From the sequence record ON922919: DNA of 64,000 bases; one strand, written 5' to 3'. Below are positions 32,089-48,138 of this stretch, in pieces. Positions within the stretch are counted from its first letter, which is position 1, and every line of letters begins with the position of its first letter. The stretch comes from Escherichia phage vB_EcoM_PD205. A model generated the notes under the pieces. That model was not told where the DNA came from. It searched no databases and saw only the letters and a list, made by a program, of their open reading frames with translations. The position numbers and the translations under genes were made by a program.

Positions 32089-32148
32089 ACTGGCTTACTG
32101 TAGAGTAAGTTACCTATATACGATATAAGTTTGAATAGGAAACATGCT

Positions 32149-35100: not shown

Positions 35101-38100
35101 AATACTATTTCCCAGGATACTCTTAATAAGTACGGTGACCGTAGGGAGAGTCCGTGGCTCTTTGCAGATGGTACTGTTGTTGGTTCTAATGGTGACCATA
35201 TCAGCCTGTCTGATGTATTTGGTCATGATGGTTATCGTGATATGTCATTAGATACTGGTGCTATTCGCTCCACTTTCTACAAAGGAAGTGAGCAACCATT
35301 TGTATCATTACAACTGTTTGATAATCAAAAGCTGACTCCTGAACAATTTAATACTGTTCAATCATTCGTAGAAGCAAACAATGCACTGATTCAGGTTGGT
35401 GTAGATACGTCTGGGCGTAATACCAATAACGTTAAGAAGGAAGAAGTATCACTGGCTCAACTGAAAGCAGACTATACCGTTGGTGGTAAACCTCTATCGG
35501 AAATGGAAACAGTGTTCCCTGTCTATAACAATGACAAGACACCGAACCAGTTCCTGAAAGCATTTACCCTTCCGGAAGAACCTAAGTCTCGTACCATTGG
35601 TTCTGAATCTCCTTTGACCGATGTTAAGAAAGCACTATCCTCTGTTGCTCGCTTTGAGGCATTCACTCAAAAAGAAAATAACGCTCTCACAAGTGATGTG
35701 ATTAAGCGTTACCAGGACTTGTTTGATTTTGGTGAAACTCTGAAGACTACCTTGTCTGACCGTCTTGCTAAGTTCCTTGCTAATAAGAATGTTGGTAAAC
35801 GCTTTGCAGAAGGTACTGAGGCTAATCGTTGGGTAGGTGGCAAACTGCTTAACATCGTAGAGAAAGATGGAGACACCTTTAAGTTCAATGACCAGTTGTT
35901 AGAGACTGCTGTACTTGCTGGTCTGCAATGGCGACTGACTGCTACACAGAATGCTGCCATTAAAGACATGAAAGACGTAGCTGCTATTACTGGTGTAGAA
36001 GCATCCCTGTTACCTGAAGGTATTCTGGCTGACTTCGAGAATGCTCAGACTCTGGTGGAAGCCACTAACTCTCTGGCTCAAAAGATTGAATCTTATTGGG
36101 GTTTGAATCGTAATCCTAATGCACCCCTGGGTTATACCAAGGGTATCCCAATGGCAATGGCTACAGAGATTCTGTCTTCTCTCATTGAGATGGGTGAAGT
36201 TAAAGAGTCTATGCTGGATGTGTCTGAGATTGACCCAGAATCCAATAAGACTGTTGGTCTGTATACCATTGAGAAGCTGGATGATAACGATGCCATTAAC
36301 AAATTCCCTACTGCTATTGAGGAAGCTGTCCTCGTAGAACCAGTAGAGAAACTGTACCTGGGTGATGATATTCCTTCCGTGGCTCAAACTCAGTTACGTA
36401 ACCCGGCTGTCAAGAATACCCCGGAACAGAAAGCTGCTCTTAAAGCAGAACAGGCTACTGAGTTCCGTGTACATATGCCGATGGTTAACTTCTACGAAGC
36501 ATTGGGTCGTGACAACATTCTGGAACTAATGGGTGCTGGTGCTCTTACCCCAGAATTGCTGAATGTGAATACTGCTAAATCTCTGGAAGGTAAAAACCTA
36601 TCCGTGTCTATGGCATATGATTCCTTGTTTGGTGTAATCAATCAGATTAAGGAACAAGAGAATGGACTGGATACACCTATCCACTATGGCTACAACATGA
36701 CCCGTGTAGGTCGTATGCAGATGCTTGGTAAGAACAACCCACAATCCAGCAAGCTGGTACGTGAAGCAATCCTACCAACTTTCTCTACCATCGACTTGAG
36801 TAATGAAAACAGCCAAACGTTCTCTGACTTCCAGCTTGGACTGGCTCAGGCATTGGGTATCAAAGTTCATAAAATGTCCCGTGAAGTTATGTCGGATGAG
36901 CTGACTAAAGCTCTGGAAGGTAAATTGAAACCTGCCGTTGATATGATGGTTGAGTTTGATAAGTCTGGGCACTTACCTACTGATGCTGTGGATATTCTGA
37001 AGACCTCTTTGGGTAATGATAAATCATTTGTAGCTCTCATGGCTCTGATGGAGTATGCCCGTTACTTGAACAGTGATGACCGAGCCAACTTTAATACTCC
37101 ACTGTACGTTGAAGCTGATGGTGTAACCAACGGGCCAATCAACGCAATGGTATTAATGACTGGTGGTAAGTTCACTTCAGACTGGATTAAGAATACTGCT
37201 AAGGGTGGTTTGTTCTTCGGTAAAGCAGGTAAGACCATGAACGAGCATCATTCGCATGAGGACAGTGTTGACCTGTATGAAGCATCCACTAATAGTCTAC
37301 AACAGGCACTGAATGAATTACGTAGTACTTATCGTAACAACGTTCCTGTTACGAACCAGATGAAGCATCTTCAGAAGTTAATGGACCTGTTCATTAAAGA
37401 CTTCAATCTTAATGAAGATGGTACTCTGGACCTGAAACGTGGTATCGCTAAAAACCCACTGACTATTACCATCTATGGCTCAGGTGCTCGTGGTATTGCA
37501 GGCAAGATGGTTAGTGCAATTACTGACACCATCTACGAACGCTTCAGTGACGTTCTACAAGCCCGTGCTGCTGACCCTAGCATTTCCCCAGCTATGGCTA
37601 TGTTTGGTAAGGAGGCTGCGTCTGAGGCCGATGCTCAGGCTATGCTGGATACTTTCCTTACTTCTATGGAAGCACTGACTGGTAATGTTCCAGTTATGCG
37701 TAAAGGTGAACTGTCTATTCAACAAGCAGAGGGTGCTCTGTCTGGTAAGTTAGACCCCCAGAAGTTTACCGTATCTGGCAATGCTCTGAAGAACCTGCAA
37801 GAGAATATGCTTCACCTGTTCGTTGAACCAATGCGTACTGGTATCCGAAATACCGTTGGCGAAGGTCTGATGCACTCTACTGAGAACTTGCAGAAGGCTA
37901 CTCAGATTCAATCTCTGGTATTGCAGGATATGTTCCAACAAGCAGTACAGGCTAAGCTGACAGAAAAAGAAAAAGACCCAACATGGAAGAAAGGTGATTT
38001 CTTAACACAGAAAGAACTAAATGAAATCCAGGCTTCATTATCTCCACTGGCTCCAATGATTGAGACTGGTTCTCAGACTTTCTACATTGCTGGTAGTGAG

Positions 38101-41100
38101 AATACTGATGTTGCTAACCAAGTATTGGCTACTAACTTAGATGACCGTATGCGTGTGCCAATGAGCATTTATGCTCCTTCACAGGCAGGTGTTGCAGGTA
38201 TTCCATTTATGACCATCGGTACTGGTGATGGCATGATGATGCAGACCCTTTCTACTATGAAAGGTGCTCCGAAGAATACCCTGAAAATCTTTGATGGTAT
38301 GAACATTGGCATTAATGACATCACTGATGCAAGCCGTAAAGCTAATGAGGCTGTATATACTTCCTGGCAGGGCAATCCTATCAAGAATGTTTATGATTCC
38401 TTTGCTAAGTTCATGAAGAATGTAGACTTCAGCAAACTGTCTGATGAAACCAAACAAGCTATCGCTAAGTCTGCTCTGGAGTATGACCAGCGTGAGGGTG
38501 CTACTGATGACCTGTTACGTGTTGGTGCTGAACAGATTGAACGTAACCTGCGTAACATTGCTTTAGGTGTAGATATTCGTCACAAGGTAATGGACCAGGT
38601 ACAAGTCACTGTTGACCAGATGGCTGCTGTAGGTGCTCCTTATGTGAACAACGGTAAAATCTCTTTGGAAGGTCTGACTGTAGACCAGCAAGTAGCTAAG
38701 CTGAACGAACTGTTTGATGCTGAATTAAACAAGCGTCGTGATGCAGTACGTGCTGCTAAAGCAGAACCAGTGAAAGAAGTACCAGCTATGGAACAGGTTG
38801 GTCGTGTACTGAAGTCTGGTGTACGTCTGCTGTCTAATACTGCTATCGCTAAACTGGCTAAAGAGATGTCTCCTGAACAACAAGCAGTATTAAAAGAAAT
38901 ACAGAAATCCCTTGCTGCCAAAGACTATAAGGTTGTTTACGGTACACCTTCTCAACTGGATGCTTATGCTATTGAGAAGAACATTACTCGCCCAGCACCG
39001 GAAGATATTGAAGCTGCTGAAGCAGGTAATGCATATGGCTGGACTAACTTTGAAGATAAGACCATCTACTTAGTTACCCCTTCCTTAGAGACTCTGGTTC
39101 ATGAATTGGTACATGCTTCTACTTTTGAATCTGTACTGGCTCACTATGAGGGTACTCCTAATGAAGCAGTCCAGAACATTGAAGACCTGATGAATCAGTT
39201 CCTTACTCTGGATGTTAAGGATGAATCCCCGGCAGTACGTGAAGCATATGCTGATGCACTGAATACCATTAATGGACACCTGTCTAATGGCTTCATTGAA
39301 CCAGCGATGGCTAAAGCTGCTGCGTTGAATGAGTACATGGCATGGGGCTTAACCAACCGTGAACTGATTGGTAAGCAGAAGAAAACTACTGCACTGAAAA
39401 CTATGGTTCAGGCTGTATATGAAGCAATCAAACGTCTGGTATTCGGACGTAAGAAAGCTCCAGCTAATGCAGATGATATGTTCTCTGGCTTACTGTTTAA
39501 CTCTGCTGTAGTAATGCGTGGACAAGCTCCTACTGCTGCTGTAGCCAAAGACACTACCCTGTTCCATAACAAAGCGTATGGTGAAAATACTCGTCTGGAA
39601 GGGCTAGGGAAAACCTTTGATAAGTTGATTACTGACTACATTGGTTCAGAACCAGTACAGCAAGTAATTCGTAAAGGTAAGTTCTCTGATGCAGTAGTGA
39701 ATGCAACTAAAGTAACTCGTGATGTTCAGGCACATGGCTTCACCATGAATATGCAGGAACAGCGTCTATTTACTAACATTGTTGCTGCACTAGCTACCGA
39801 GGCTGCTATTAACCCTGCTGCTTTGGCTCGTGCACAGGAATACTACACACATGTTACTAAGAACCTGACCGTTGAAGCATTCATGGCTGACCCGGATAGT
39901 ACTAACCCTGCTGACCGTTACTATGCACAGCAGAAGTTCGATACCATCATGGGTGCTAACAACATTGAGTTTGATGCACAAGGTCGTTCTTCCTTACTGC
40001 CTACCTTTGTTGGACTGGCAATGGTAAGTGAAGAGGTACGTAAAGTACTGGCTGATATTCCTGTTATGAAAGTAGATAAGAAATCAGGCAATACCGTTGA
40101 TGCAATGCTGACTAACATCGGTACTGCTGCAATGGCTAGTCTGAATGCTCGTGTAGCAGGCGATACTAAAGCTACTAACGTACAGGAAGGTATGGATGCA
40201 CTGGCTCAGACAATCATGCAGACCAGCCTTAATGCAGAATCCTTCTATGATTCCGTTGCTACTCCTACTGGTAATGCTATTGACCGTGCTAACCAGTATC
40301 TGGTGGACTCTATTGATGTACTGTCTACCCGTGCTTTGGAAGGTGCTCGTGAAGTTGCAGCTAATACCAAGAATCCATTGGTTAAAGGTGCTGCTCATGC
40401 TGCACAACTGATAGCTGCTATCGCTACAGAGAAGAATGGTTCAATCGTAGCTGAAGGTGTTATGGCTGCAATGAACCAAGGTAAAGTATGGCAACCTTTC
40501 CATGACCTGGTTAATGACTTAACTGGTCGTACTAAGAGCAATGCTTCTGTTTATGATTTGATTAAAGCAGTACGTGCACAGGTACAGGCTGACCGTCAGC
40601 AATTCCGTGAGCATTTACCTACCACTATCGCATCTAAGTTCAGTCGTAAACTGACTAATGATGAGTGGAGAGCAATGCATACTGGTATGGGTAAGACTGA
40701 CTTAGCTGTTCTGCGTGACACTATGTCTCTGGATGAAATCCGTGACCTGCTGACTGACCAGAAGATTGTTGACCGTGAGGTTAATAAACTGGAAGCAGAT
40801 TTGCAGAAACAAGCCGGACGTAACTGGCCTCTGATTAACCGTAAATCTAAGCAACTAGCTCAGTATATGATTAACGGTACGGTTGGTAATAACCTGCTGC
40901 GTAATGCTACTGCAATTTCTCGCTTGCTGGGGGAACGTAAGACTACACGTTCTGTTGTAGATGTAGCTCAACTGGATAAATTGATTACCCTGTATGCACT
41001 GGAAGCAATGAGTAAGACTGACCGTGAGATGTTATCTTCACTGGCTCAGACAGAAATTGAAGGTATGGATTTTGCTACTTCTTATCTGGTTGGTCAGCGT

Positions 41101-42903
41101 AAAGATGAAATGGCTAAAGCTAAGTCTGATAGTCGTGCAACCTTGAACCAGTACAAAGGGTATATCCCTAGCGAGAACAAACAGGGAGTTAACCTGATTG
41201 TTGCTGAAGATAGTCAGTTCTCTGATTTGATTGAGAAATCCTATGTACGTCTGGGTACTTATCAGGGTAGTTCTGCTAACCGTGGTGCAGCACGTAGTTA
41301 CTACTTTGCACCGGTACAGGCACAGGCTCCATTCTCACAGGGTATCCTACAGAACGTTCGCAATACTGCTGGTGGTGTAGACCTTGGTACAGGCTTTACG
41401 ATGGGAACCATGGTAGCTGGTCGTATCACTGACAAACCTTCCGTAGACCGTATTACTAAAGCACTGGCTCGTGGTGAACGTGGTAATGAACCACTGCTGC
41501 CTGTATATGATGCCAATGGTAATGTGATTGCTTACGAGCAATCTATTGACCCTAATATGCTGAAGCACATTGAAGGTGAGAACCATCTTGCTCGTGCAAT
41601 TGGTGTATGGCGTGGTCGTCAAGTAGAAGAAGCTAAGGCCCAGCGTTTCAACGATATTCTGATTGAGAATCTGCACAGCATGTATGAGAACGACATTAAG
41701 ATGTCTGCTTCTAATAAGTCCCAGTACGTTAACCTTCTTGGTTCTAAACTGGACCCAGTAACTGCCGATGCTCTTAAACTGATGAACAGTGAAACTCGTC
41801 AGAAAGCAGAAAGTCTGTTTGGTCCGGGTGAGTTGTGGGTACGTCGTGACATGCTTAATGATGCTTTAGGTTATCGTGCAGCTTCTGTGGGTGATGCCTG
41901 GTCTGGTAATTCTCGTTGGTCCCCAGAAACACTGGATACCTTCAAGAAAGCTATGCTTGGTGTCTTCGGTAACCGTGCCTATAAGTATGTAATGGGTGGT
42001 GAGAATCTGGTTCAAAACTTAGTTAAAGAAGCTAAGACTCTGATTGTAGTTAAATCAGTAGTCGTACCTGCTGTTAACTTCCTGGCTAACCTTTACCAGA
42101 TGGTTGCTCGTGGTGTACCTGTTAAGAATATTGCTAAGAGCATTCCACAGAAGACTGCTGAGATTAACCAGTATCTGAAATCTCGTCTGCGTCAGGTAGA
42201 TGCAGAAGCAGAGTTACGTGCAGCTACTAACCCGAACCAGATTCGTAAGCTGAAGGCCGAGATTCAGTCCATCACGGATAGCCATAAGCGTTTAAGTATC
42301 TGGCCTCTGCTGGAAGCTGGCGAGTTCTCCTCAATTGCAGATGCTGGTATTGGACGTGATGACATCCTGATTACTGAAGGTAAACTTCACGAGTACATGG
42401 ATAAGCTGGCTGATAAGCTGCCTAAGTCTGTACGTAACGCAGGACGATATGCACTTATTACTAAGGATACTGCTCTGTTTCAGGGTATCCAGAAGACGGT
42501 TGAATACTCTGACTTTATCGCTAAGGCAATCATCTATGATGAACTGACTCAGCGTAAAGGTAAGACTCGTGAAGAAGCACTTGGACGTGTAACGGAAGAG
42601 TTCATTAACTATGACCGTTTGCCAGGTCGCTTCCGTGGGTATATGGAAAGTGTTGGTCTGATGTGGTTCTACAACTTTAAGATTCGTTCTGCAAAAGTTG
42701 CAGTGTCCATGATTCGTAACAACCCAGTCCATGCTGCTATGGCTATGTTGGCCCCAACTCCTACCATGTTTGGTAATGTTGGTCTGCCTATTCAGGATAA
42801 CATCTTTAGCATTGCTGCACAGGGTAACCTTGGTTACTCCTTCGGTTTCGGTCAAGGTTTACGTGCCCATAACCTTAACCCTTGGCTCAACCTTACTAAC
42901 TAA
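32149..42903 (+). CDS. virion-encapsidated RNA polymerase (N4 vRNAP-like giant protein, about 3584 aa)
   Basis: ORF track 32131..42903 begins at TTG; ATG 32149 with AGGA RBS chosen; 10.8 kb single ORF; central region carries T7-like motifs (KRGIAKNPLTITIYGSG motif B-like, MTIGTGDGMMMQT motif C-like). Confidence 0.85.
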   Translation: MSTFDRLAGFADSITNAKQVDVSTATSRKQAAQGQSPFQLTPDNAYNLQTGRVGNLGIGAYEPGSLQADFTQASPLEIINKYGNEQGLQILNSRANAADAVRQDLSKQRTNAEAFGDILSGVGLGVANTLGGIAALGTGLVNDNAGASIASGLDWLNKGVHNLQSDALNARRNVVQNQNVISAQENDKLYKQDIAKGESELVASLSRIGRDAYDSVTNTLDNGMAATDGLAEGVGSLFTGGPLIRGVSALGKVMVGGDKAVKGITLAAELGSRPARIAQSAGRIAAPAIAIGGMEAGGAYQQTANEIMEMPFSELAAKSPVYQQHIKDGLSPEEARRQTASETGITAAGLTAPVAALTAPLVSKFELNPLKVGSLAGAGSNMLRETVEEGIQSGTSQLAQNKAIQGNVDAKRDLLKGVGEQTGLGALYGFGSAGVAQAPGTTVKAAGAAVGPAVRTTLAGASLAGKALAKVASPITTILVQRGEEVAKRNEQASPVSDATVNAAAQEATAQAEQAQATVQEAVDAMDISPEEKTAATQYAADLTQAMKFDPVELEQASPTIREAVSGSTNRVEAIQKMADLVNTAEDPNVQMEAAIQMYDNIMSMDSFINRDPGALANLEQGSPAAAIVDQFSGLMANVQNTPKVLRAFRAIHSMIQEQAEAGKLKATEEANQAQANNIAMAADMSPEVLDADSVNMVLKHASEGKITLGNRQRAALQSAAALLQGAREFDAKAEELGLRPQDIVSKQIKTDESRSNEGQYSALQHAKRIRSAYNSGNFDLASAYLDDFMKFAQHMQNKVGALNEHLISGNADKNKSVHYQALTPSREWVRSRTGLGVNPYDTKSVKFAQQVGLEAKTVADIANALATAYPELNVSHVKVTPLDSRLDKPAAQVVKEFRQGNLDAAQSQQTNEPVNQVDETPVTKQEPVTPTVQTKPSVSEAVKTEPTNKESNPQTAKEPENQSEKQDTIKQSTESERDAYVKENTISQDTLNKYGDRRESPWLFADGTVVGSNGDHISLSDVFGHDGYRDMSLDTGAIRSTFYKGSEQPFVSLQLFDNQKLTPEQFNTVQSFVEANNALIQVGVDTSGRNTNNVKKEEVSLAQLKADYTVGGKPLSEMETVFPVYNNDKTPNQFLKAFTLPEEPKSRTIGSESPLTDVKKALSSVARFEAFTQKENNALTSDVIKRYQDLFDFGETLKTTLSDRLAKFLANKNVGKRFAEGTEANRWVGGKLLNIVEKDGDTFKFNDQLLETAVLAGLQWRLTATQNAAIKDMKDVAAITGVEASLLPEGILADFENAQTLVEATNSLAQKIESYWGLNRNPNAPLGYTKGIPMAMATEILSSLIEMGEVKESMLDVSEIDPESNKTVGLYTIEKLDDNDAINKFPTAIEEAVLVEPVEKLYLGDDIPSVAQTQLRNPAVKNTPEQKAALKAEQATEFRVHMPMVNFYEALGRDNILELMGAGALTPELLNVNTAKSLEGKNLSVSMAYDSLFGVINQIKEQENGLDTPIHYGYNMTRVGRMQMLGKNNPQSSKLVREAILPTFSTIDLSNENSQTFSDFQLGLAQALGIKVHKMSREVMSDELTKALEGKLKPAVDMMVEFDKSGHLPTDAVDILKTSLGNDKSFVALMALMEYARYLNSDDRANFNTPLYVEADGVTNGPINAMVLMTGGKFTSDWIKNTAKGGLFFGKAGKTMNEHHSHEDSVDLYEASTNSLQQALNELRSTYRNNVPVTNQMKHLQKLMDLFIKDFNLNEDGTLDLKRGIAKNPLTITIYGSGARGIAGKMVSAITDTIYERFSDVLQARAADPSISPAMAMFGKEAASEADAQAMLDTFLTSMEALTGNVPVMRKGELSIQQAEGALSGKLDPQKFTVSGNALKNLQENMLHLFVEPMRTGIRNTVGEGLMHSTENLQKATQIQSLVLQDMFQQAVQAKLTEKEKDPTWKKGDFLTQKELNEIQASLSPLAPMIETGSQTFYIAGSENTDVANQVLATNLDDRMRVPMSIYAPSQAGVAGIPFMTIGTGDGMMMQTLSTMKGAPKNTLKIFDGMNIGINDITDASRKANEAVYTSWQGNPIKNVYDSFAKFMKNVDFSKLSDETKQAIAKSALEYDQREGATDDLLRVGAEQIERNLRNIALGVDIRHKVMDQVQVTVDQMAAVGAPYVNNGKISLEGLTVDQQVAKLNELFDAELNKRRDAVRAAKAEPVKEVPAMEQVGRVLKSGVRLLSNTAIAKLAKEMSPEQQAVLKEIQKSLAAKDYKVVYGTPSQLDAYAIEKNITRPAPEDIEAAEAGNAYGWTNFEDKTIYLVTPSLETLVHELVHASTFESVLAHYEGTPNEAVQNIEDLMNQFLTLDVKDESPAVREAYADALNTINGHLSNGFIEPAMAKAAALNEYMAWGLTNRELIGKQKKTTALKTMVQAVYEAIKRLVFGRKKAPANADDMFSGLLFNSAVVMRGQAPTAAVAKDTTLFHNKAYGENTRLEGLGKTFDKLITDYIGSEPVQQVIRKGKFSDAVVNATKVTRDVQAHGFTMNMQEQRLFTNIVAALATEAAINPAALARAQEYYTHVTKNLTVEAFMADPDSTNPADRYYAQQKFDTIMGANNIEFDAQGRSSLLPTFVGLAMVSEEVRKVLADIPVMKVDKKSGNTVDAMLTNIGTAAMASLNARVAGDTKATNVQEGMDALAQTIMQTSLNAESFYDSVATPTGNAIDRANQYLVDSIDVLSTRALEGAREVAANTKNPLVKGAAHAAQLIAAIATEKNGSIVAEGVMAAMNQGKVWQPFHDLVNDLTGRTKSNASVYDLIKAVRAQVQADRQQFREHLPTTIASKFSRKLTNDEWRAMHTGMGKTDLAVLRDTMSLDEIRDLLTDQKIVDREVNKLEADLQKQAGRNWPLINRKSKQLAQYMINGTVGNNLLRNATAISRLLGERKTTRSVVDVAQLDKLITLYALEAMSKTDREMLSSLAQTEIEGMDFATSYLVGQRKDEMAKAKSDSRATLNQYKGYIPSENKQGVNLIVAEDSQFSDLIEKSYVRLGTYQGSSANRGAARSYYFAPVQAQAPFSQGILQNVRNTAGGVDLGTGFTMGTMVAGRITDKPSVDRITKALARGERGNEPLLPVYDANGNVIAYEQSIDPNMLKHIEGENHLARAIGVWRGRQVEEAKAQRFNDILIENLHSMYENDIKMSASNKSQYVNLLGSKLDPVTADALKLMNSETRQKAESLFGPGELWVRRDMLNDALGYRAASVGDAWSGNSRWSPETLDTFKKAMLGVFGNRAYKYVMGGENLVQNLVKEAKTLIVVKSVVVPAVNFLANLYQMVARGVPVKNIAKSIPQKTAEINQYLKSRLRQVDAEAELRAATNPNQIRKLKAEIQSITDSHKRLSIWPLLEAGEFSSIADAGIGRDDILITEGKLHEYMDKLADKLPKSVRNAGRYALITKDTALFQGIQKTVEYSDFIAKAIIYDELTQRKGKTREEALGRVTEEFINYDRLPGRFRGYMESVGLMWFYNFKIRSAKVAVSMIRNNPVHAAMAMLAPTPTMFGNVGLPIQDNIFSIAAQGNLGYSFGFGQGLRAHNLNPWLNLTN

Positions 42904-42931
42904 ATGAAAAAGCCCCCCTAATGAGGGGCTT
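42901..42931. terminator. hairpin at convergent junction (AAGCCCC / GGGGCTT, 7 bp stem); U-tract only on minus strand
   Basis: Stem 42910..42916 / 42925..42931; overlaps vRNAP stop; on minus strand followed by UUUCAUUUA, so likely terminates the 42967..43200 transcript. Confidence 0.5.
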
Positions 42932-42966
42932 CTACTAATACTCATACTAGATGTGCTGTAAATGAT

Positions 42967-43200
42967 TTATTTACATTTTCCCCACATCTTAGGTTTACGC
43001 CCCTCGCTTGGAAATTTACCAGTCTCTTTAATCTTCCGTAATGTTTCCTCTGATGGGAACCACAGGAATGAGAAGTAAAGTTTCTTGGCTACGTAACGAG
43101 TTACTCCCAGTTTCTCTGAGATTTCATCGAATGAATATGTACGAACAGTATTGTTGAGAATGGCCTCACGAACAACAGTGGTAATAGATACTTGTGTCAT
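42967..43200 (-). CDS. hypothetical small protein, possible HTH DNA-binding
   Basis: 77 aa; FDEISEKLGVTRYVAKK HTH-like; AGGAAA RBS. Confidence 0.35.
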   Translation of the reverse strand: MTQVSITTVVREAILNNTVRTYSFDEISEKLGVTRYVAKKLYFSFLWFPSEETLRKIKETGKFPSEGRKPKMWGKCK

Positions 43201-43212
43201 GTGTATTTCCTA

Positions 43213-43254
43213 TAAATGAGAAAGCCCTCACTAGGAGGGCTTGTTTTGTTTTGG
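43213..43254. terminator. terminator-like hairpin (AGCCCTC-ACUAG-GAGGGCU) with U-rich tail on plus strand
   Basis: 7 to 8 bp stem 43222..43242 followed on plus strand by UGUUUUGUUUUGG; lies between two minus-strand genes, so strand of action is ambiguous. Confidence 0.4.
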
Positions 43255-43323
43255 CTTATAGAGCCTTACTACTTTGTCGGGTAGTTCAGTACCTTTCGGT
43301 AAAAACTACCTTACACCTTTGAA

Positions 43324-43704
43324 TCAGATTGTACAACCACCACCATCACAGGTATTGTTTTCTGCAAAGGAAGCCAGAGCTTTAGCAGTCTCTTCTTTCT
43401 CATGCAGTGCCTGACGTAGCAGGTAACCCTCTAATTCCCAAATCTTATTGAATGCATTTTCATATGCATACTGACGACCTTTTTGCTCATCATAGATAGT
43501 CGGGTCTACACAAGCAGATACGCCTTCAACTTTGAATCCATTTTCCAGGATGATAATGCAATGGGTTACCAGACCCAGGTTAGCCAAATCATCTGCTGGG
43601 ATTGCTGAAGGGTCAACGAATGCAGACTTCACTGCGTCAGCACCATTAAAATAGTAGACGCTCTTAATCTTAGCTTCGATTGCTTCTTTACTTACTGTTG
43701 CCAT
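43324..43704 (-). CDS. hypothetical protein (possibly N4 gp49-like, by position next to vRNAP)
   Basis: ORF track 43324..43716; ATG 43704 with GAGG RBS preferred; family assignment from memory and position only. Confidence 0.4.
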   Translation of the reverse strand: MATVSKEAIEAKIKSVYYFNGADAVKSAFVDPSAIPADDLANLGLVTHCIIILENGFKVEGVSACVDPTIYDEQKGRQYAYENAFNKIWELEGYLLRQALHEKEETAKALASFAENNTCDGGGCTI

Positions 43705-43760
43705 TATTAGCCTCATAGAGTGGTTTGAGTTTGTACTTAAACATGATTGTGCTTACTAAT

Positions 43761-43791
43761 ACTCAAATAAAAAAGTCCCTCCGAAGAGGGA
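43761..43791 (-). terminator. rho-independent terminator (AGTCCCTC-CGAA-GAGGGACT; RNA loop UUCG) with U6 tract
   Basis: 8 bp perfect stem 43772..43791; minus strand continues UUUUUUAUUUGA; would terminate minus-strand transcripts coming from the tRNA-like island. Confidence 0.65.
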
Positions 43792-44587
43792 CTTAGTAGC
43801 TTTAACGCAGCTAACGAGGCTTGTATGAGTGCTGGGATTTGCAACTCCCAGCATATCCCCACCGTTTTAGCTGACGGCAAACAGAGATTGATAGTCTCAG
43901 AGGATACTTTACTCAGGCTAGGATTTAAGGAGTTCCTATTCTCCAGCGAAATTCCCGTCGAGGGGAATAACAATACAATAGCAGCCACTGGACTGTCTTA
44001 CCAGTGTTGTCTTTAGAGTGCAATGCAATCAGGACTATGTTACTGCTAAATAGGTTGAGTCATGCCAGACTTTAACTGGCTCCTTCTTCGCAATCCTTAC
44101 ATACCCCTACATAATTATTGCGTTAAGCTTTTTTGTTTAAGTTTAAGTGAAGGCGTTCTTGCTGACTCATAATAGGGTGGGCGTTTGACGAATGACTAGT
44201 TCGTTACTACCCGTTTGCCATAAGTACCTGGCGACTTTGGTTTGAGGTGGGAGTCCGATTCCTGTACAGCCTTACCGTTCACACATTGGCAGCGTATCTA
44301 GAATAGCACTTCCAGCAACTGGATTTAACTGTTACACCTCAAATCTGGTAGGGGCGTCCAGAAGTCTCATCTGGTACTTACGCTGTCGTATGGTTACGAC
44401 TTACCCCCATAGTTAGTTGCTCGGATCACCCCCTTGACTAAAGTGACCTTTGAGGGGCTACGCTACACTATGTGTTTCATCCCATTACAGAGAATCATCA
44501 GGCGTATTAGTTGGTCACCCCGGATACCTACTTGCCGAGCATTGGTATCGTATGGCTCGTCCAATTAGAAGTAGCACTGTTGCAGTC

Positions 44588-44668
44588 GTCACTGCTCATA
44601 GGTAAGGATTCGAACCTTACAATACCATTGGTTTGCAACGTCGCTGTACCATTTCGCGTTCTATGCAA
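44588..44668 (-). tRNA. tRNA-like element (canonical T-arm, imperfect acceptor stem; anticodon not determined)
   Basis: Minus-strand TAAGG-TTCGAAT-CCTTA T-arm (plus 44597..44613); putative acceptor halves pair only over 5 central bp; cloverleaf not confirmed by eye. Confidence 0.25.
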
Positions 44669-44681
44669 TGCTACTTTGAAT

Positions 44682-44760
44682 TGGTTACCAGTGAGGGATT
44701 CGAACCCCCGGTTGGAGTCTATAGCTTACCGCAGCAGCCCTCCAATCTAGCGGTGTCACA
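44682..44760 (-). tRNA. tRNA-like element with encoded 3' CCA (anticodon not determined)
   Basis: Minus-strand GGGGG-TTCGAAT-CCCTC T-arm (plus 44693..44709) followed by ACTGGTA-A-CCA; matching 5' acceptor strand TACCAGT is found only 121 nt upstream, so the structure is non-canonical or interrupted. Confidence 0.3.
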
Positions 44761-44807
44761 CTTAGTCCAAACTTGAACATGTCAAGCCATCTCGTGCAAC
44801 TGGTAAT

Positions 44808-44880
44808 TGGTTCCGGCGTCTGGACTCGAACCAGAACACTCATGCCGTGCACGACACTAGTACCTACACCGGAATAAATT
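44808..44880 (-). tRNA. tRNA-like element with encoded 3' CCA (anticodon not determined)
   Basis: Minus-strand TCTGG-TTCGAGT-CCAGA T-arm (plus 44819..44835) followed by CGCCGGA-A-CCA; nearest complementary 5' acceptor (TCCGGTG) gives only about 63 nt; partial duplicate of the 3' region (CGTCTGGAC) at 44929..44937. Confidence 0.3.
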
Positions 44881-44992
44881 GCCAGGGATTCCACCTGGCT
44901 CCATCTGTTTTTATAGTCACTCAGATATCGTCTGGACTTGCTGTGGAGTGACGCACCATCTCACTCTTGAATGTTAACCCATTCCCAGCCCC

Positions 44993-45040
44993 ACAACACA
45001 CTCTACGGTTAAGATTATCGCGTGTGTTGTATGGTCTTGC
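44993..45040. repeat. inverted repeat, 9 bp stem (ACAACACAC ... GTGTGTTGT) with 30 nt loop
   Basis: Read directly; stem 44993..45001 pairs with 45032..45040. Confidence 0.5.
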
Positions 45041-45046
45041 TGGTCA

Positions 45047-45127
45047 CAACAGGTAAGAGCATTTAACAGAAGATAGGTCTGATTGCCTCGGATAATTTCT
45101 CAGTAGCCTAAATGCTCTTACCTGTTG
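45047..45127. repeat. 19 bp perfect inverted repeat (CAACAGGTAAGAGCATTTA ... TAAATGCTCTTACCTGTTG) with 43 nt spacer
   Basis: Verified base by base: 45047..45065 is the reverse complement of 45109..45127. Confidence 0.75.
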
Positions 45128-45412
45128 GTTCCCCGTTTCTAATACACGGACGGGGACACTCCATGGTCGTTTGATAATCAGGACGACTCACTCCTGACTG
45201 ACGCTTGGCTTATTAGGCTGCCATCAGAACAACATCATCGTTTGCATTTATGTTATTGGTTCGTTTCTAAAAAACCGCATAATCGCTTACGAAAACTATC
45301 AAAGAGTACACTAGCACAGGTAGCTACCCTGCCGTCTTCTCTATTTACACCGGCTACAGTGTAAACCTCCGCACGTTAGCCTAATGTACTCATTGATAGG
45401 ATGTCAGTAGGT

Positions 45413-45482
45413 CGGGGGCTGGATTCGAACCAGCGAGAGAAGTAGCGACCATCTGCACATGCCTACGTGCTACCCCGACCAT
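45413..45482 (-). tRNA. probable tRNA gene (about 70 nt; anticodon uncertain, candidates GCU or CGC depending on loop register)
   Basis: Minus strand: 7 bp perfect acceptor stem (GTCGGGG / CCCCGAC), 4 bp D-stem (GCAC / GTGC) with GG-containing D-loop, perfect T-arm GCTGG-TTCGAAT-CCAGC; anticodon stem imperfect and variable loop short, so needs tRNAscan-SE or ARAGORN confirmation. Confidence 0.45.
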
Positions 45483-45657
45483 TATAATAGGAGGGAGGGG
45501 ACGAGTCCTCCCTTTATACCCTATATTGCATGTAAGACCTAACAATTCGATGCTGTAGGTAGCTATGCTATCCGACATTTAACCCAGCCCATATAGGGGC
45601 TTATGTGATTAAAATGCTCAACATTGAGCGGTTAGTTTGATAAGGGATCTGAAGCCT

Positions 45658-45727
45658 TATCCCAAAGATACTAACCTTTGGGATATAGCCTATCATTCAG
45701 AAATGGCCCCTATAGGGAGAGGCCATT
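45658..45727. repeat. two adjacent strong hairpins (10 bp stem 45658..45685; 7 bp stem 45702..45727 whose loop reads CCTATAGGGAGA)
   Basis: TATCCCAAAG-ATACTAAC-CTTTGGGATA and AATGGCC-CCTATAGGGAGA-GGCCATT read directly; loop of second hairpin matches the T7 promoter initiation core CTATAGGGAGA. Confidence 0.5.
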
Positions 45728-46299
45728 GATTAACCCGAATGTTGCTTTACATTTGCTGTGATAACCTATTCTTAAAATAGTCTACCTGACGGATGGGCAT
45801 AAACCCTAGCGTCAGTGCCATACGGCAAAGATTAAGTTAAGAAAGGTTATGATAGGAGTTCCTATCTCAAAGGATTCTGACAGAACCCTTCACGATATTA
45901 ACTACTCTTTTTCAATGCTTCAACTTCACCCTCTTTATACCAAGCATACGGTATTAAGATTTTGCAGCCTTATGAATCAATGTGGAATGCTTTGTTTCCT
46001 TCAGCAGGTTCTCCACCCATGAAAGAACTAACCTTTCCATTGAGCCAGTGAATAGTAAATTTGTTCATATTAACCCCGGTTGAACCAATGGACTTCGGAG
46101 AGTATTAAAGCCCACTGGTTCGGTTGTTGTTATTCTGGCGGCTTGTCACCACCGTGTTTACCACTGCATTTCCACAGGATAATGACAGTGATGATAAAAG
46201 CTATGTATGGAGCCGACACGTCTATAATCCTGACCAGTAGTAGCATCAGGACTATAAACACTACCACACCTAGCAGCAGCTTCTGAGCCACCTACCAGA

Positions 46300-46779
46300 T
46301 TAACTACGTTTCAGGCCAGCGAACAGTGAAGGCTTCGCAGCAGGTTTCTCTGCTGGTTCTTCAGCCTTAACTTCCTCCTGCACAACTTCTTCTTGTGCTT
46401 CTGGTTCAGCTACTGCTTCTTCAGGTTCCGGCGTAGAACTCTCGTTCTGACCACCAACTGAGGTCGGGGCATCTACTTTCGGTCCCAGAGGTGCTCCCTC
46501 CTTTACTGATTCAGTAACAACTTGCTCACCAACCTCAGGTTCTGAGGTTGAGTCAACAGGACGATGTTTGGCTTCTTGTGGATTCTTACGAGGACGGCGG
46601 GTCTTCTTCTCTACCAAGGGTGGAGTGTCATCACTATGACCGACCTCTTCATTGATACCAATAGTGGCAGTACCATCTGCATTCACCAGGATATTAATGT
46701 CCCCGGCAAGATTAACTTGTTCATTTACATAAGCTTCAATAGCAGCTTCTACTTCAGACTGGTTCAGAACGATTTGCAT
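46300..46779 (-). CDS. hypothetical protein with highly acidic Pro/Glu-rich C-terminal half
   Basis: 159 aa ORF; first gene after the non-coding island on minus strand. Confidence 0.4.
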   Translation of the reverse strand: MQIVLNQSEVEAAIEAYVNEQVNLAGDINILVNADGTATIGINEEVGHSDDTPPLVEKKTRRPRKNPQEAKHRPVDSTSEPEVGEQVVTESVKEGAPLGPKVDAPTSVGGQNESSTPEPEEAVAEPEAQEEVVQEEVKAEEPAEKPAAKPSLFAGLKRS

Positions 46780-46780
46780 A

Positions 46781-47335
46781 TTATGCCTTTATTAATTTAA
46801 TGAGATTCTGGAAAGCTGGTAGATTTACCCCAGCGTGGATTGCACCGATTGCATCAGCTAAGTGCTCATTCTTATTCAGAAGTTTACCTTTCTTATCCGT
46901 GAGCCAGTTGGCTTCAGGATAGATAGCATGAGCAGCACGAATCATCGTGTCTTTGGATGCAGTTTTATCACCGACCAGTGCAAGTTTGTTTTCAATTGGG
47001 GATACTTCAAAGATTGGGCAACCCAATGCACGGAATGCACCGATTAATCCTACGCATACACCATAGGACTTCATACCATTAGCAGACTGAGAGCCTACTG
47101 GTACTTCTACGAATACTGCTTTAGCAGACCGTAACCATTCCTCACAACCAAGAAACAAATCATGGGCAGCTTGTATATCTTTGGAGTTGGTTCGAACTTG
47201 TTTGTTGTGGTCAACTTCAGTTTGAATCAGTTTAAGTTCGACCTGCTCGAAGACACCGGATTCAATGTCCAGCATCCCACGAGCTAATCCCCAATTGCGG
47301 AGGCTAATGTCTGCACCGACAATTGGGATTTTCAT
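46781..47335 (-). CDS. RuvC-like Holliday junction resolvase
   Basis: 184 aa; IVGADISLRNWG (N-terminal catalytic Asp), FVEVPVGSQ, EHLADAIGAIHAG resembling RuvC acidic motifs. Confidence 0.5.
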   Translation of the reverse strand: MKIPIVGADISLRNWGLARGMLDIESGVFEQVELKLIQTEVDHNKQVRTNSKDIQAAHDLFLGCEEWLRSAKAVFVEVPVGSQSANGMKSYGVCVGLIGAFRALGCPIFEVSPIENKLALVGDKTASKDTMIRAAHAIYPEANWLTDKKGKLLNKNEHLADAIGAIHAGVNLPAFQNLIKLIKA

Positions 47336-48138
47336 TAACGCTTACCGAACAGTGATTTACCACCAGCTGGAGTAGTACCTGTGCCAGCACCTGCACCTGG
47401 TTTAGGAGGCAAACCACCTTTACTATTACCACCAGTAGAACCCTTGGTCTTATCACGGGTTTTGCCTTTGTTCTTCTCTAACCATGCTGCGTAGAATACA
47501 GCTAGTTCTGGGGTCAGTTCTTTCTCAGCCTTCTCTGCTTCCTGAGCCTCGACGACTGTGACCAACAGCTCCGGATGAAACACTTTCTGAATCTCGTTTA
47601 CTTCACGAGTTTCACCGGAGTCAACATAACCGTTGTCACCCTTAACCTGCTTGGATTCCAGAACCTTTTCCAGAGCGAAGGTAACAGTCTGTCCTACCAG
47701 GTCAACTGGAACCATGACGGATTTATTAACTTCTGCTTTAGCATCGAAGTCATAGACTTTGACAATCTTCTCTTCGAAGTCTGCTTCAGGCAGTTCAGTA
47801 CCAGTAGCCATCAGCATCATGTCGTTAATGACAGTGTAGCCAGGCAGGAAGTATTCTTTACCGTTCTTCTCGTAAGTCGGCTTGTTGCCTTTAGCATTAC
47901 CAGAAGTGAAGTACACCTGAGCACGGAACTCACCGGCAGGTACGCCGTCAGAGTTTTTCAGGTCTTCAATAATTAACTGCATCCAGTCTGCACCAGAATC
48001 AGCTTTGCCTACATAGGCTACTTTTACAGTACCGGTGTAGATATCGGATTCTTTTGCACCGAATCCACCACCACCAAGGGAGTCTTTAACAGCTTCAACG
48101 TTTTTGGTTTTTTCTTTCAGATTACTGAACAATGACAT
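47335..48138 (-). CDS. putative single-stranded DNA-binding protein (N4 SSB-like by size/position) with Gly-rich C-terminal tail
   Basis: 267 aa; AGGAAAA RBS; C-terminal GGNSKGGLPPKPGAGAGTGTTPAGGKSLFGKR; identity inferred from size and synteny only. Confidence 0.35.
   Translation of the reverse strand: MSLFSNLKEKTKNVEAVKDSLGGGGFGAKESDIYTGTVKVAYVGKADSGADWMQLIIEDLKNSDGVPAGEFRAQVYFTSGNAKGNKPTYEKNGKEYFLPGYTVINDMMLMATGTELPEADFEEKIVKVYDFDAKAEVNKSVMVPVDLVGQTVTFALEKVLESKQVKGDNGYVDSGETREVNEIQKVFHPELLVTVVEAQEAEKAEKELTPELAVFYAAWLEKNKGKTRDKTKGSTGGNSKGGLPPKPGAGAGTGTTPAGGKSLFGKR

Follow-up and report, generated by a model that had tools for sequence, protein, structure and literature searches.

We analyzed a 64,000-nt stretch of DNA from Escherichia phage vB_EcoM_PD205 (sequence record ON922919), referred to below as the window, whose closest DNA matches are the Gamaleyavirus (G7C-like) coliphages at 90-96% identity. 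The virion RNA polymerase (vRNAP) open reading frame (ORF) of this N4-like phage, 3,590 aa long, occupies 32131-42903 on the plus strand, and the replication (middle) genes lie on the minus strand from ~51 kb down to 46.3 kb. In N4, the phage RNA polymerase II (RNAPII) transcribes the middle genes and the host polymerase transcribes the late genes (PMC4496689). Given N4-type middle and late transcription and the gene order, the island of structured DNA between the two blocks sits at the point where the middle-gene block has its 3' end and runs toward the oppositely oriented vRNAP gene. The original prediction for this DNA had described the island as 3.4 kb of largely gene-free, highly structured sequence and had suggested a functional RNA cluster and/or a replication origin. 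The most notable content of the island is absent from that prediction. It is a tag template like that of transfer-messenger RNA (tmRNA), located in a putative 170-nt RNA read from the minus strand (45299-45130), which begins with an arm antisense to ssrA, the host tmRNA gene. Around this RNA stand tRNA-like units, long hairpins, and a few small protein genes (Table 1).

The tag frame starts at a GCA resume codon and has neither an AUG nor a Shine-Dalgarno sequence, as is the case for a tmRNA tag. Its product would be ANDDVVLMAA, followed by two stops; the E. coli tag is ANDENYALAA. At positions -6 to -4, the phage linker has the same bases that precede the E. coli resume codon (AAUAGUC before GCA), and these bases are A84-U85-A86 of E. 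coli tmRNA, which are determinants of resume-codon choice. Every variant type inspected retains AUA at these positions, even the divergent copies of Bue1, Kevin, and L341, whereas ACA stands there in one additional copy (L259). Exactly 10 codons and a stop are present in 127/127 homologues, which together encode 17 peptide variants of the pattern A-N-[DE]-[DEN]-x-x-[LMK]-x-[AV]-A with a hydrophobic C terminus, among them ANDDLMMVAA (the P1 copy), ANEEMYLAVA, ANDEQFLAVA, and ANDNTFLAVA. The first two codons are near-invariant, residues 3 and 4 are acidic or Asn, and the last Ala is written in three synonymous codons (GCC, GCG, and GCU).

Downstream of the template, the predicted fold consists of a stop-codon hairpin and two H-type pseudoknots, whose covariation we tallied with our own scripts. 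The outer stem of the hairpin alternates between CUGA/UCAG and CUGG/CCAG (G-C in 32 and A-U in 26 of 58 sequences). For each pseudoknot stem, homologous positions show between four and seven versions in which all changes are compensated. In the first pseudoknot, S1 is found as GCAAGG/CCUUGU, GUGAGG/CCUCAU, ACGGGG/CCCCGU, or AGUCAGG/CCUGAUU, all fully compensated, and S2 as CCGA/UCGG, CCAG/CUGG, CCAA/UUGG, or GUCGU/ACGAC. In the second, S1 is found as CGCAC/GUGUG, CGCAG/CUGUG, CGCAUU/GAUGUG, CAUGG/CCGUG, CGUGG/CCAUG, or CGUGGU/ACCAUG, and S2 as GCCCG/UGGGC, UCCCCGU/ACGGGGA, GCCCUGA/UCAGGGC, GGCGGGAG/CUCCCGCC, or ACCCCU/AGGGGU. When a pseudoknot finder was run on shuffled sequences, the observed score was reached in only 0-6 of 200 shuffles per sequence. 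Conservation of the core breaks off 5' of GUUUUCG and 3' of the second pseudoknot, and beyond these points the 127 loci are mosaic. Copies of the DS8 and L026 types have a sigma-70 promoter directly before the arm, which places the predicted 5' end of the RNA there. The pattern of substitution indicates that the core is under purifying selection and compensatory evolution in at least five phage groups. In phage P7 (L006 1501-1890), the element has Op(ban), the C1-controlled operator, on one side and tRNA-Asn/tRNA-Thr on the other, and a terminator-like hairpin with a U-run directly precedes it; from its position after Op(ban), it is probably the first RNA of the C1-repressed tRNA operon.

The core is found in 314 of 50,697 phage records, spread over N4-like phages of Escherichia, Klebsiella, Salmonella, and Shigella, the Punavirus P1, five genera of Ackermannviridae, and siphoviruses of ~45-49 kb, several of them Drexlerviridae. 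The matching DNA in these records is nearly all unannotated, the few exceptions being "hypothetical protein" calls. A distant BLAST with the island had matched this part to unannotated DNA of unrelated phages, namely Shigella phage DS8 and other siphoviruses of ~45-49 kb, the Ackermannviridae Klebsiella phage KP6, Erwinia phage Bue1, and Kevin, and the P1-like P7 and D6. A motif scan of IMG/VR added at least 120 further loci. Of 5,426 complete E. coli genomes, 657 (12%) carry the core, mostly on P1-like plasmids, and it also occurs in 603 PLSDB plasmids and in many prophage contigs. Within the unannotated RNA array of KP6 (L005 287-500), we also observed a match to Rfam STnc100, a gammaproteobacterial small RNA (sRNA), at 49.7 bits against a gathering score of 47, and P7 (L006 321-436) has an STnc100 match just under the gathering threshold.

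Standard models score this RNA below threshold or miss it. At low threshold, Rfam tmRNA_permuted matches 45213-45315 on the minus strand with 32.7 bits (E 4e-4; gathering score 47), beta_tmRNA reaches 13.7 bits against a gathering score of 84, and RF00023 gives no match. Neither for the window nor for any of 18 related loci does ARAGORN call a tmRNA. No conserved tRNA-like domain belonging to the core emerged from ARAGORN, low-threshold Rfam searches, a module census of the 127 loci, or alignment to the ends of ssrA, and local alignment to both E. coli ssrA ends detected no ssrA-like 5' or 3' halves near the cores. A "GUUGUGGUG...CACCACAA" tRNA-like unit lies downstream of the core in only 15-33 of the 127 loci. 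Nor does the locus have a two-piece layout: the upstream tRNA-like unit T1 is a self-contained cloverleaf without G3:U70, and the core begins with the antisense arm rather than with an acceptor strand. Because it has no tRNA-like domain, the RNA lacks the feature that defines tmRNA and two-piece tmRNA alike. In two IMG/VR contigs (L026 and L107), which have their own promoter, GCGGGTTCGATTCCCGCGTCACTCTCCCA stands ~480 nt past the tag and resembles the T arm and 3' acceptor/CCA of ssrA.

Compared with bacterial tmRNA (SsrA, RF00023, clan CL00001), the phage RNA shares the GCA resume codon after A-U-A at -6 to -4, a 10-residue tag that starts with AND or ANE and ends in hydrophobic-Ala-Ala, and a stop codon placed in a hairpin (helix 5) with H-type pseudoknots after it. 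In contrast to bacterial tmRNA, it lacks an acceptor stem bearing G3:U70, a T arm within the RNA itself, and helix 2; it has two downstream pseudoknots rather than three, is ~170 nt long rather than ~360 nt, and stays below every Rfam tmRNA threshold. The place of pseudoknot 1 (PK1) is taken by a 42-51-nt arm antisense to the host segment that runs from PK1 to codon 6.

The target of this arm, read from the ssrA sequence of an annotated E. coli genome, starts within PK1, whose 3' half it includes, and continues through the A-rich linker and the resume codon as far as codon 6. The consensus of the 5' domain reads (A)UAGUUUUCGU..GCGA(C/U)U(U/A)UGCGG..UUUAGAAAC.GACC, and the length of the arm varies between 42 and 51 nt in the family. 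All 39 distinct arm variants pair with the same ssrA site (nt 56 to ~107) over 33-43 bp, at a dG of -34 to -48 kcal/mol in RNAduplex. For the arm in the window, the dG is -40.3 kcal/mol on ssrA, which corresponds to z -7.1 when either partner is dinucleotide-shuffled, and -14.9 kcal/mol on its own tag region; the family medians are -43 for ssrA and -26 for the own tag. Raw RNAduplex energy was rejected as a test of specificity, since G+C-rich windows of the island give similar values, and composition-matched shuffles and an alignment score against genome windows were used instead. When the reverse-complemented arms were aligned to ssrA, most variants scored 35-47; the maximum over a background of 31,918 windows of the 64-kb genome was 34. 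Invariant columns of the arm are paired in 26 of 28 cases, as opposed to 11 of 19 for variable columns (odds ratio 9.5, Fisher p 0.009). Among 120 ssrA genes of Enterobacterales, the target segment is near-invariant, and host variation begins at codon 7, which is where the complementarity ends. The arm of Bue1 has CAGACC against GGUUUG in E. amylovora ssrA (L185), and other arms have CUGACC against GGUUGG in E. coli. Bue1 (L129) thus carries a U to A change opposite a G to U change in ssrA, which converts a U-G pair into an A-U pair and is the sole host-matched compensatory change. Energies of pairing with the own host differ by less than 2 kcal/mol. Judged by its extended, conserved complementarity beyond chance, the arm has the hallmark of an antisense or sponge RNA.

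Two other approaches to the 5' domain were set aside. A looser, arm-only scan of viral contigs returned mostly chance matches, and the tag is found in each of the four to five genuine additions to the family. An intramolecular PK1-like pseudoknot (GUUUU/GAAAC and CUUUG/CAAAG) was dropped in favor of pairing with host ssrA: GUUUU/GAAAC is uninformative because it is invariant, and the CUUUG/CAAAG pairing shifts register between types.

We assign a probability of roughly 55% to a model in which the island is a minus-strand small-RNA array of a G7C-like phage and the 170-nt RNA docks on host tmRNA, where it masks or replaces the tag template. The array would be read in the direction of the upstream middle genes and closed by the terminator at 43773-43794. 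The 170-nt RNA would be released from the array with a predicted 5' end at (G)AUAGUUUUCG and a 3' end past the second pseudoknot. Its arm would then anneal to host tmRNA, melting the 3' half of PK1 and covering the host resume codon and the first six codons, and the resulting duplex would substitute for PK1. E. coli tmRNA tolerates a simple helix in place of PK1, and the two-piece tmRNAs of alpha-proteobacteria function as two base-paired RNAs. In the docked complex, the phage resume codon would lie 12 nt past the duplex; the host resume codon lies 11-12 nt past PK1. Ribosomes rescued through SmpB and the tRNA-like domain of the host tmRNA would read ANDDVVLMAA in place of ANDENYALAA, or, as the minimum outcome, the host tag would become unreadable. 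Before docking, the arm could fold back, more weakly, onto its own linker and tag and so hold the template closed. The complex as a whole would be a two-piece tmRNA completed by the phage. The more far-reaching part of this model, in which host Ala-tmRNA/SmpB ribosomes resume on the phage template and an inter-genomic two-piece tmRNA has spread as a mobile cassette among N4-like, P1-like, lambdoid, Ackermannviridae, and T1-like phages, is tentative, and we would put the odds on it somewhat short of even.

Several points weigh against docking. The 170-nt RNA and its pairing are predictions from sequence, and resumption of a ribosome on the template of a second, docked RNA is a supposition. Paired with ssrA, other 45-nt windows of the island that are rich in G+C come to about -41 kcal/mol, and the shortened arm of this phage is the weakest in the family, with an alignment score of 29 that is equaled or exceeded by 13 of 31,922 windows (~4e-4). 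Because the target is invariant, intermolecular covariation rests on the one compensatory event in Bue1. The arm can also form the weaker fold-back on its own linker and tag, and access of the arm to PK1, which is folded and SmpB-bound in mature tmRNA, is uncertain. Finally, L026 and L107 allow a possible G3:U70 register, so some lineages may encode a complete but rearranged tmRNA that would act in cis.

The main rival explanation is that the RNA is only an antisense inhibitor, which blocks host tmRNA or triggers its cleavage, for example by RNase III, and so shuts down trans-translation during infection. No translation of the tag would take place in this case, and selection would keep its frame and the pseudoknots only as a tmRNA-like scaffold for stability, protein binding, or co-localization. 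The complementarity to ssrA fits this explanation equally well, the near-continuous duplex of 33-43 bp would be a plausible RNase III substrate, and the RNA lacks a tRNA-like domain. Inhibition accounts for the arm but not for the coding constraints, which are hard to explain without decoding: the 10 codons and stop are kept in every copy, the residues fit a degradation tag (hydrophobic, then [AV], then a C-terminal Ala), the last Ala is preserved through synonymous codons, and the A-U-A signal is conserved. We therefore consider pure inhibition unlikely, while regarding it as the strongest competitor.

Doubtful to a greater degree is an autonomous, oddly arranged phage tmRNA, in which a neighboring tRNA-like module, in cis or as a second piece, would provide the aminoacylated domain and host tmRNA would not be needed. 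Two-piece tmRNAs do exist, the core always stands in arrays with tRNA-like modules of which several encode a CCA end, and downstream of the L026-type copies there is a T arm with a 3' end that resembles ssrA. However, no tRNA-like module is consistently linked to the core, whose flanks are mosaic, and it is this lack of a conserved partner that makes an autonomous tmRNA less likely. In addition, none of the tRNA-like units of the window has G3:U70, ARAGORN is tmRNA-negative and ssrA-like domains are missing near the cores in the loci described above, and the conserved anti-ssrA arm would be left unexplained.

The phage RNA differs from each of the systems that it most resembles. The two-piece permuted tmRNAs of alpha-proteobacteria, some beta-proteobacteria, and cyanobacteria likewise consist of an acceptor RNA and a template RNA held together by base pairing, which is the arrangement proposed here. 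Their pieces, however, come from one permuted gene in one genome and pair through acceptor and helix-2 strands, whereas here the coding piece comes from the phage and its partner would be a complete host tmRNA, bound at PK1 and the tag region. The mycobacteriophages of the Bxz1 group, Bacillus phage G, and mycobacteriophage DS6A also have genes that act on trans-translation. Those of the Bxz1 type are complete tmRNAs, unlike the RNA described here. DS6A has an RNA that consists only of a tRNA-like domain and is reported to inhibit endogenous tmRNA in E. coli (PMC4131195, PMC11915505); the present RNA is the complementary fragment, with template and pseudoknots, plus an antisense arm. The enterohemorrhagic E. 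coli anti-sRNAs AgvB and AsxR, located in accessory regions of lambdoid prophages (PMC4104026), are, like the RNA proposed here, phage or prophage small RNAs that base-pair with a host RNA. They target Hfq-dependent sRNAs through short seeds, in contrast to a tmRNA target, ~50 nt of complementarity, and a coding module. Surveys of phage tmRNAs found them only in mycobacteriophages and Bacillus phage G and included no enterobacterial phage (PMC4131195, PMC11915505). In a full-text search of the literature, no RNA that resembles or opposes tmRNA turned up for enterobacterial phages, with an older mention for P1 being possible. The tmRNA-derived phage RNA thus appears to be new, and tag swapping, if real, would be a new kind of mechanism.

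Ribosome rescue by tmRNA and SmpB is universal in bacteria and influences the growth of several phages, but enterobacterial phages have not been reported to encode any of its components. Here, a conserved and unannotated RNA unites a tmRNA tag template with an arm against host tmRNA in P1, in N4-like therapeutic candidates, and in Vi1-like phages. If the docking model is true, no natural RNA before this one would have been seen to pair with tmRNA and thereby retarget or block trans-translation; it would also be a natural case of a tag template supplied in trans, and P1 and E. coli would form a genetically tractable system for resume-codon choice. On a minimal reading, the element is a widespread mobile structured-RNA cassette within arrays of non-canonical tRNA-like RNAs.

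Table 1. Features of the island and its edges, with the 170-nt RNA listed first
Feature	Position	Strand	Remarks
5' arm, 42 nt	45258-45299	minus	antisense to E. coli ssrA nt 56-107
Linker, 12 nt	45246-45257	minus	ends AUAAAU; A(-6) U(-5) A(-4) ahead of resume codon
Tag frame	45210-45245	minus	GCA AAC GAU GAU GUU GUU CUG AUG GCA GCC UAA UAA
Stop-codon hairpin	45198-45227	minus	analogous to tmRNA helix 5; outer stem covaries
First H-type pseudoknot	45166-45199	minus	analogous to PK2; compensated stem variants
Second H-type pseudoknot	45130-45165	minus	analogous to PK3; 3' end of conserved core
Multi-hairpin structured domain	45621-45900	minus	z -6.4 (45761-45900) and -4.5 (45621-45760); conserved in Gamaleyaviruses
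tRNA-like T1	45410-45480	minus	8-bp acceptor, 6-bp D stem, canonical T arm, defective anticodon stem
Long hairpin 0	45296-45399	minus	19-bp stem enclosing three small hairpins; inverted repeat I2, 89% complementary; z -4.5
Long hairpin 1	45047-45127	minus	19-bp perfect repeat; member of GGUAAGAGCAUU...AGUGCUCUUACC hairpin family; z -6.0
Module M2	44900-45044	minus	hairpin set including 9-bp inverted repeat; z -1.7
Hairpin and tRNA-like T2	44808-44899	minus	hairpin 44881-44899, T2 44808-44874; z -3.35 (-3.4 for 44805-44899)
tRNA-like T3	44682-44805	minus	UACCAGU ... GGGGGUUCGAAUCCCUC ACUGGUA A CCA; large insert replaces normal body
Long hairpin with T4	44561-44684	minus	19-bp stem, tip is tRNA-like body T4; inverted repeat I3, 84% complementary; z -4.6
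tRNA-like T5	44238-44341	minus	UGAGGUG ... CACCUCA A CCA; non-canonical body; inverted repeat I12 is acceptor stem
Intrinsic terminator closing RNA array	43765-43794	minus	9-bp stem with 5 G-C pairs, 4-nt loop, T-run
Single-stranded DNA-binding protein (SSB) gene	47335-48138	minus	middle-gene block
RuvC-like gene	46781-47335	minus	middle-gene block
Middle gene	46300-46779	minus	
Small membrane-protein gene, 53 aa	46130-46291	minus	two-helix; upstream edge of island, outside RNA array
Small conserved ORF, 32 aa	45970-46068	minus	family profile 56 aa; phrog_14773, E 1e-22; relatives 91-97% identical
Protein gene, 130 aa	43324-43716	minus	N4 gp48 homologue; downstream of array; phrog_322, E 1e-45
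Protein gene, 77 aa	42967-43200	minus	last minus-strand gene, convergent with vRNAP; phrog_9565, E 5e-33

The remainder of the array consists largely of five minus-strand tRNA-like units (T1-T5) with acceptor stems, mostly canonical T arms, and abnormal bodies, three of which (T2, T3, and T5) encode a CCA end. The four T-arm elements noticed in the original prediction are canonical: all lie on the minus strand within 44,596-45,479, with a 5-bp G+C-rich stem and the loop TTCGA[AG]T, and the acceptor pairing is 7/7 in three of the four. Automatic tRNA finding bore out this tRNA-like character only in part, as ARAGORN calls a single tRNA, T1 (45409-45480, minus strand, "Ala cgc"), and neither ARAGORN nor Rfam calls any of T2-T5. 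T1, called "tRNA-Ala(cgc)", matches only tRNA-Sec in Rfam (30.5 bits, gathering score 47); its anticodon stem is mismatched, its fold z is -2.9, and no G3:U70 pair can be read from its sequence. T2 combines an acceptor stem and a T arm with one long hairpin and the encoded end ...GCCGGAACCA, has no anticodon arm, and is more stable on the minus strand (-37.4) than on the plus strand (-27.7 for 44808-44899), with its T arm and acceptor pairing confirmed. In T3, the acceptor stem is 7 bp long, the T arm is canonical, and ACCA is encoded; the canonical T arm of T4 was confirmed as well.

At the same locus, between gp47 and gp48, N4 has tRNA-Asn/Ser/Thr/Pro, which score 50-78 bits in Rfam. The T2 region (window 44805-44938) is 96% identical to N4 DNA that is unannotated (L007 2072-2206), and T5 (44248-44336) is 97% identical to N4 (L007 1690-1778) and has a part in common with Enterobacter phage F1M1E. 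A function for T2 and T5 can be argued because this identity persists while the surrounding DNA has diverged. N4 itself (L007, NC_008720) has unannotated, CCA-ended, non-canonical tRNA-like RNAs at 1690-1778 and 2072-2206, between its four canonical tRNAs. Like the tRNA cluster of N4 and the tRNA operon of P1, the array is a polycistronic arrangement of stable RNAs with T arms and CCA ends, in the same genomic position and orientation; unlike in those clusters, most of the units are not decodable, with no normal anticodon arm, large inserts, and long closing stems.

Three long hairpins of the window (45047-45127, 45296-45399, and 44561-44684) belong to a recurrent family whose GGUAAGAGCAUU...AGUGCUCUUACC stems are often extended to CACAAC.../...GUUGUG, with the inner motif GCAUU/AGUGC. 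Such hairpins flank or enclose modules in 94-99 of the 127 loci, and their hosts are P1-like, Ackermannviridae, T1-like, and N4-like phages and uncultured viral or prophage contigs. Their cargo ranges from 42 nt up to whole tRNA-like bodies. The 3' strand of long hairpin 0 abuts and overlaps the start of the tmRNA-derived RNA, and the energy of this hairpin is -41.5 kcal/mol on the minus strand versus -31.6 kcal/mol on the plus strand. A possible role of the long hairpins is in processing, or in marking the borders of cassettes and so favoring the shuffling of modules.

Other segments also have matches in unrelated phages. Segment 45482-45667 (186 nt) is ~81% identical to DNA of the phiEco32-like phages NC-B, TH34, and 101114UKE3, where it is unannotated, and module M2 is 76% identical to DNA of Shigella phage DS8, a siphovirus of the genus Deseoctovirus. 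Segments 44418-44554 and 44233-44352 match unannotated or "hypothetical" DNA in the large myoviruses Klebsiella 05F01 and Enterobacter vB_ExiM_F1M1E. In 43,795-44,237 and 44,346-44,560, no signal was detected. By these matches, the island is a mosaic of cassettes exchanged between unrelated phages. In the comparison with relatives that the original prediction had proposed, some modules are conserved at 96-97% in N4, and the Gamaleyavirus interval is mosaic, with some stretches found only in this phage.

It is very unlikely that the island is a decaying tRNA cluster, that is, degenerating tRNA and tmRNA fragments that are in effect spacer. Such decay would explain why tRNA finders fail on most elements, why module content differs among close relatives and includes stretches unique to this phage, and why the Gamaleyavirus relatives have odd calls in this interval (tRNA-Ile(aat), "tRNA-???", tRNA-Cys(aca)/pseudo, and tRNA-Pseudo). 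It does not explain the 96-97% identity of non-canonical modules to N4, the compensatory evolution and purifying selection of the core, the strong fold z-scores, or the tight packing of the rest of the genome.

Measured against dinucleotide shuffles, about half of the 16 segments tested have fold z values of -3 to -6.4 (values for named features are in Table 1); for the remaining tested segments, nested-structure energy is indistinguishable from that of shuffles. Folds of the minus strand are usually more stable than those of the plus strand. The 19-bp perfect inverted repeat (45047-45065/45109-45127), and the 9-bp inverted repeat (44993-45001/45022-45030) of the original prediction are present, as are further long inverted repeats, and the strong minus-strand terminator that had been placed at 43761-43791 was found at 43773-43794 plus a T-run. 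Terminator-like sites number 16 in the island, compared with 2.8 +/- 1.8 in shuffles, or about six-fold more. No Rfam family reaches its gathering score in the island, and Y RNA-like (YrlA), GOLLD, ROOL, and other large phage noncoding RNA models have no match at E up to 10 in 42800-46500. The idea of a functional RNA cluster nevertheless holds up well, since the tRNA- and tmRNA-like features are all on the minus strand, co-oriented with the upstream middle genes and followed by one strong terminator, the position is homologous to that of the N4 tRNA cluster, the modules are 96-97% conserved with N4 or common to unrelated phages, and one module has abundant compensatory base-pair changes and a conserved mini-ORF. 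The idea of a replication origin, or of another DNA-level element with the hairpins as cruciforms or protein-binding sites, scarcely survives: many inverted repeats, the adjoining replication module, and a nearby turn in GC skew speak for it, but there are no iterons (the T arm is the sole direct-repeat family), there is no A+T-rich stretch (G+C is 0.42-0.50, higher than in the flanks), the turn of cumulative GC skew at ~42.6 kb coincides with the convergent transcription switch at 42.9 kb, and strand-specific RNA features (G-U pairs, T arms, CCA ends, and a reading frame) account for the repeats.

No ORF longer than 83 aa lies between 43,737 and 46,130, and a protein-coding explanation of the RNA modules was rejected, as the ORFs of 62-83 aa that overlap them are interrupted by stop codons in relatives. 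The two minus-strand genes named in the original prediction, 42967..43200 and 43324..43704 (here 43324-43716), are borne out by their phrog matches. The first has a terminator at 42908-42933; the second has its own terminator at 43222-43242 and resembles N4 over 43354-43500. The claim that 43,800-46,300 is gene-free stands for 43,717-45,969, where there is no credible protein gene, and falls for the upstream edge, where 46130-46291 and 45970-46068 are credible genes; because these two are real, the gene-free stretch is only ~2.25 kb. ORF 46130-46291 is 100% conserved in Gamaleyaviruses, is 81% identical to N4 at the amino acid level (79.5% at the nucleotide level), and matches phrog_19025 (E 5e-9). 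Its N4 homologue (L007 2719-2874) is unannotated in the reference NC_008720. Present annotations of such regions either show nothing or list small ORFs and pseudo-tRNAs that are spurious, and recognition of the RNA modules would be of value for annotation. In phages nithesis (L001 2652-4621) and Mimir124, automated annotation puts 9-12 tiny "hypothetical protein" coding sequences in the RNA island, and the record of one relative has "anti-CRISPR protein" calls there; the tiny coding sequences and the "anti-CRISPR" calls are almost certainly spurious.

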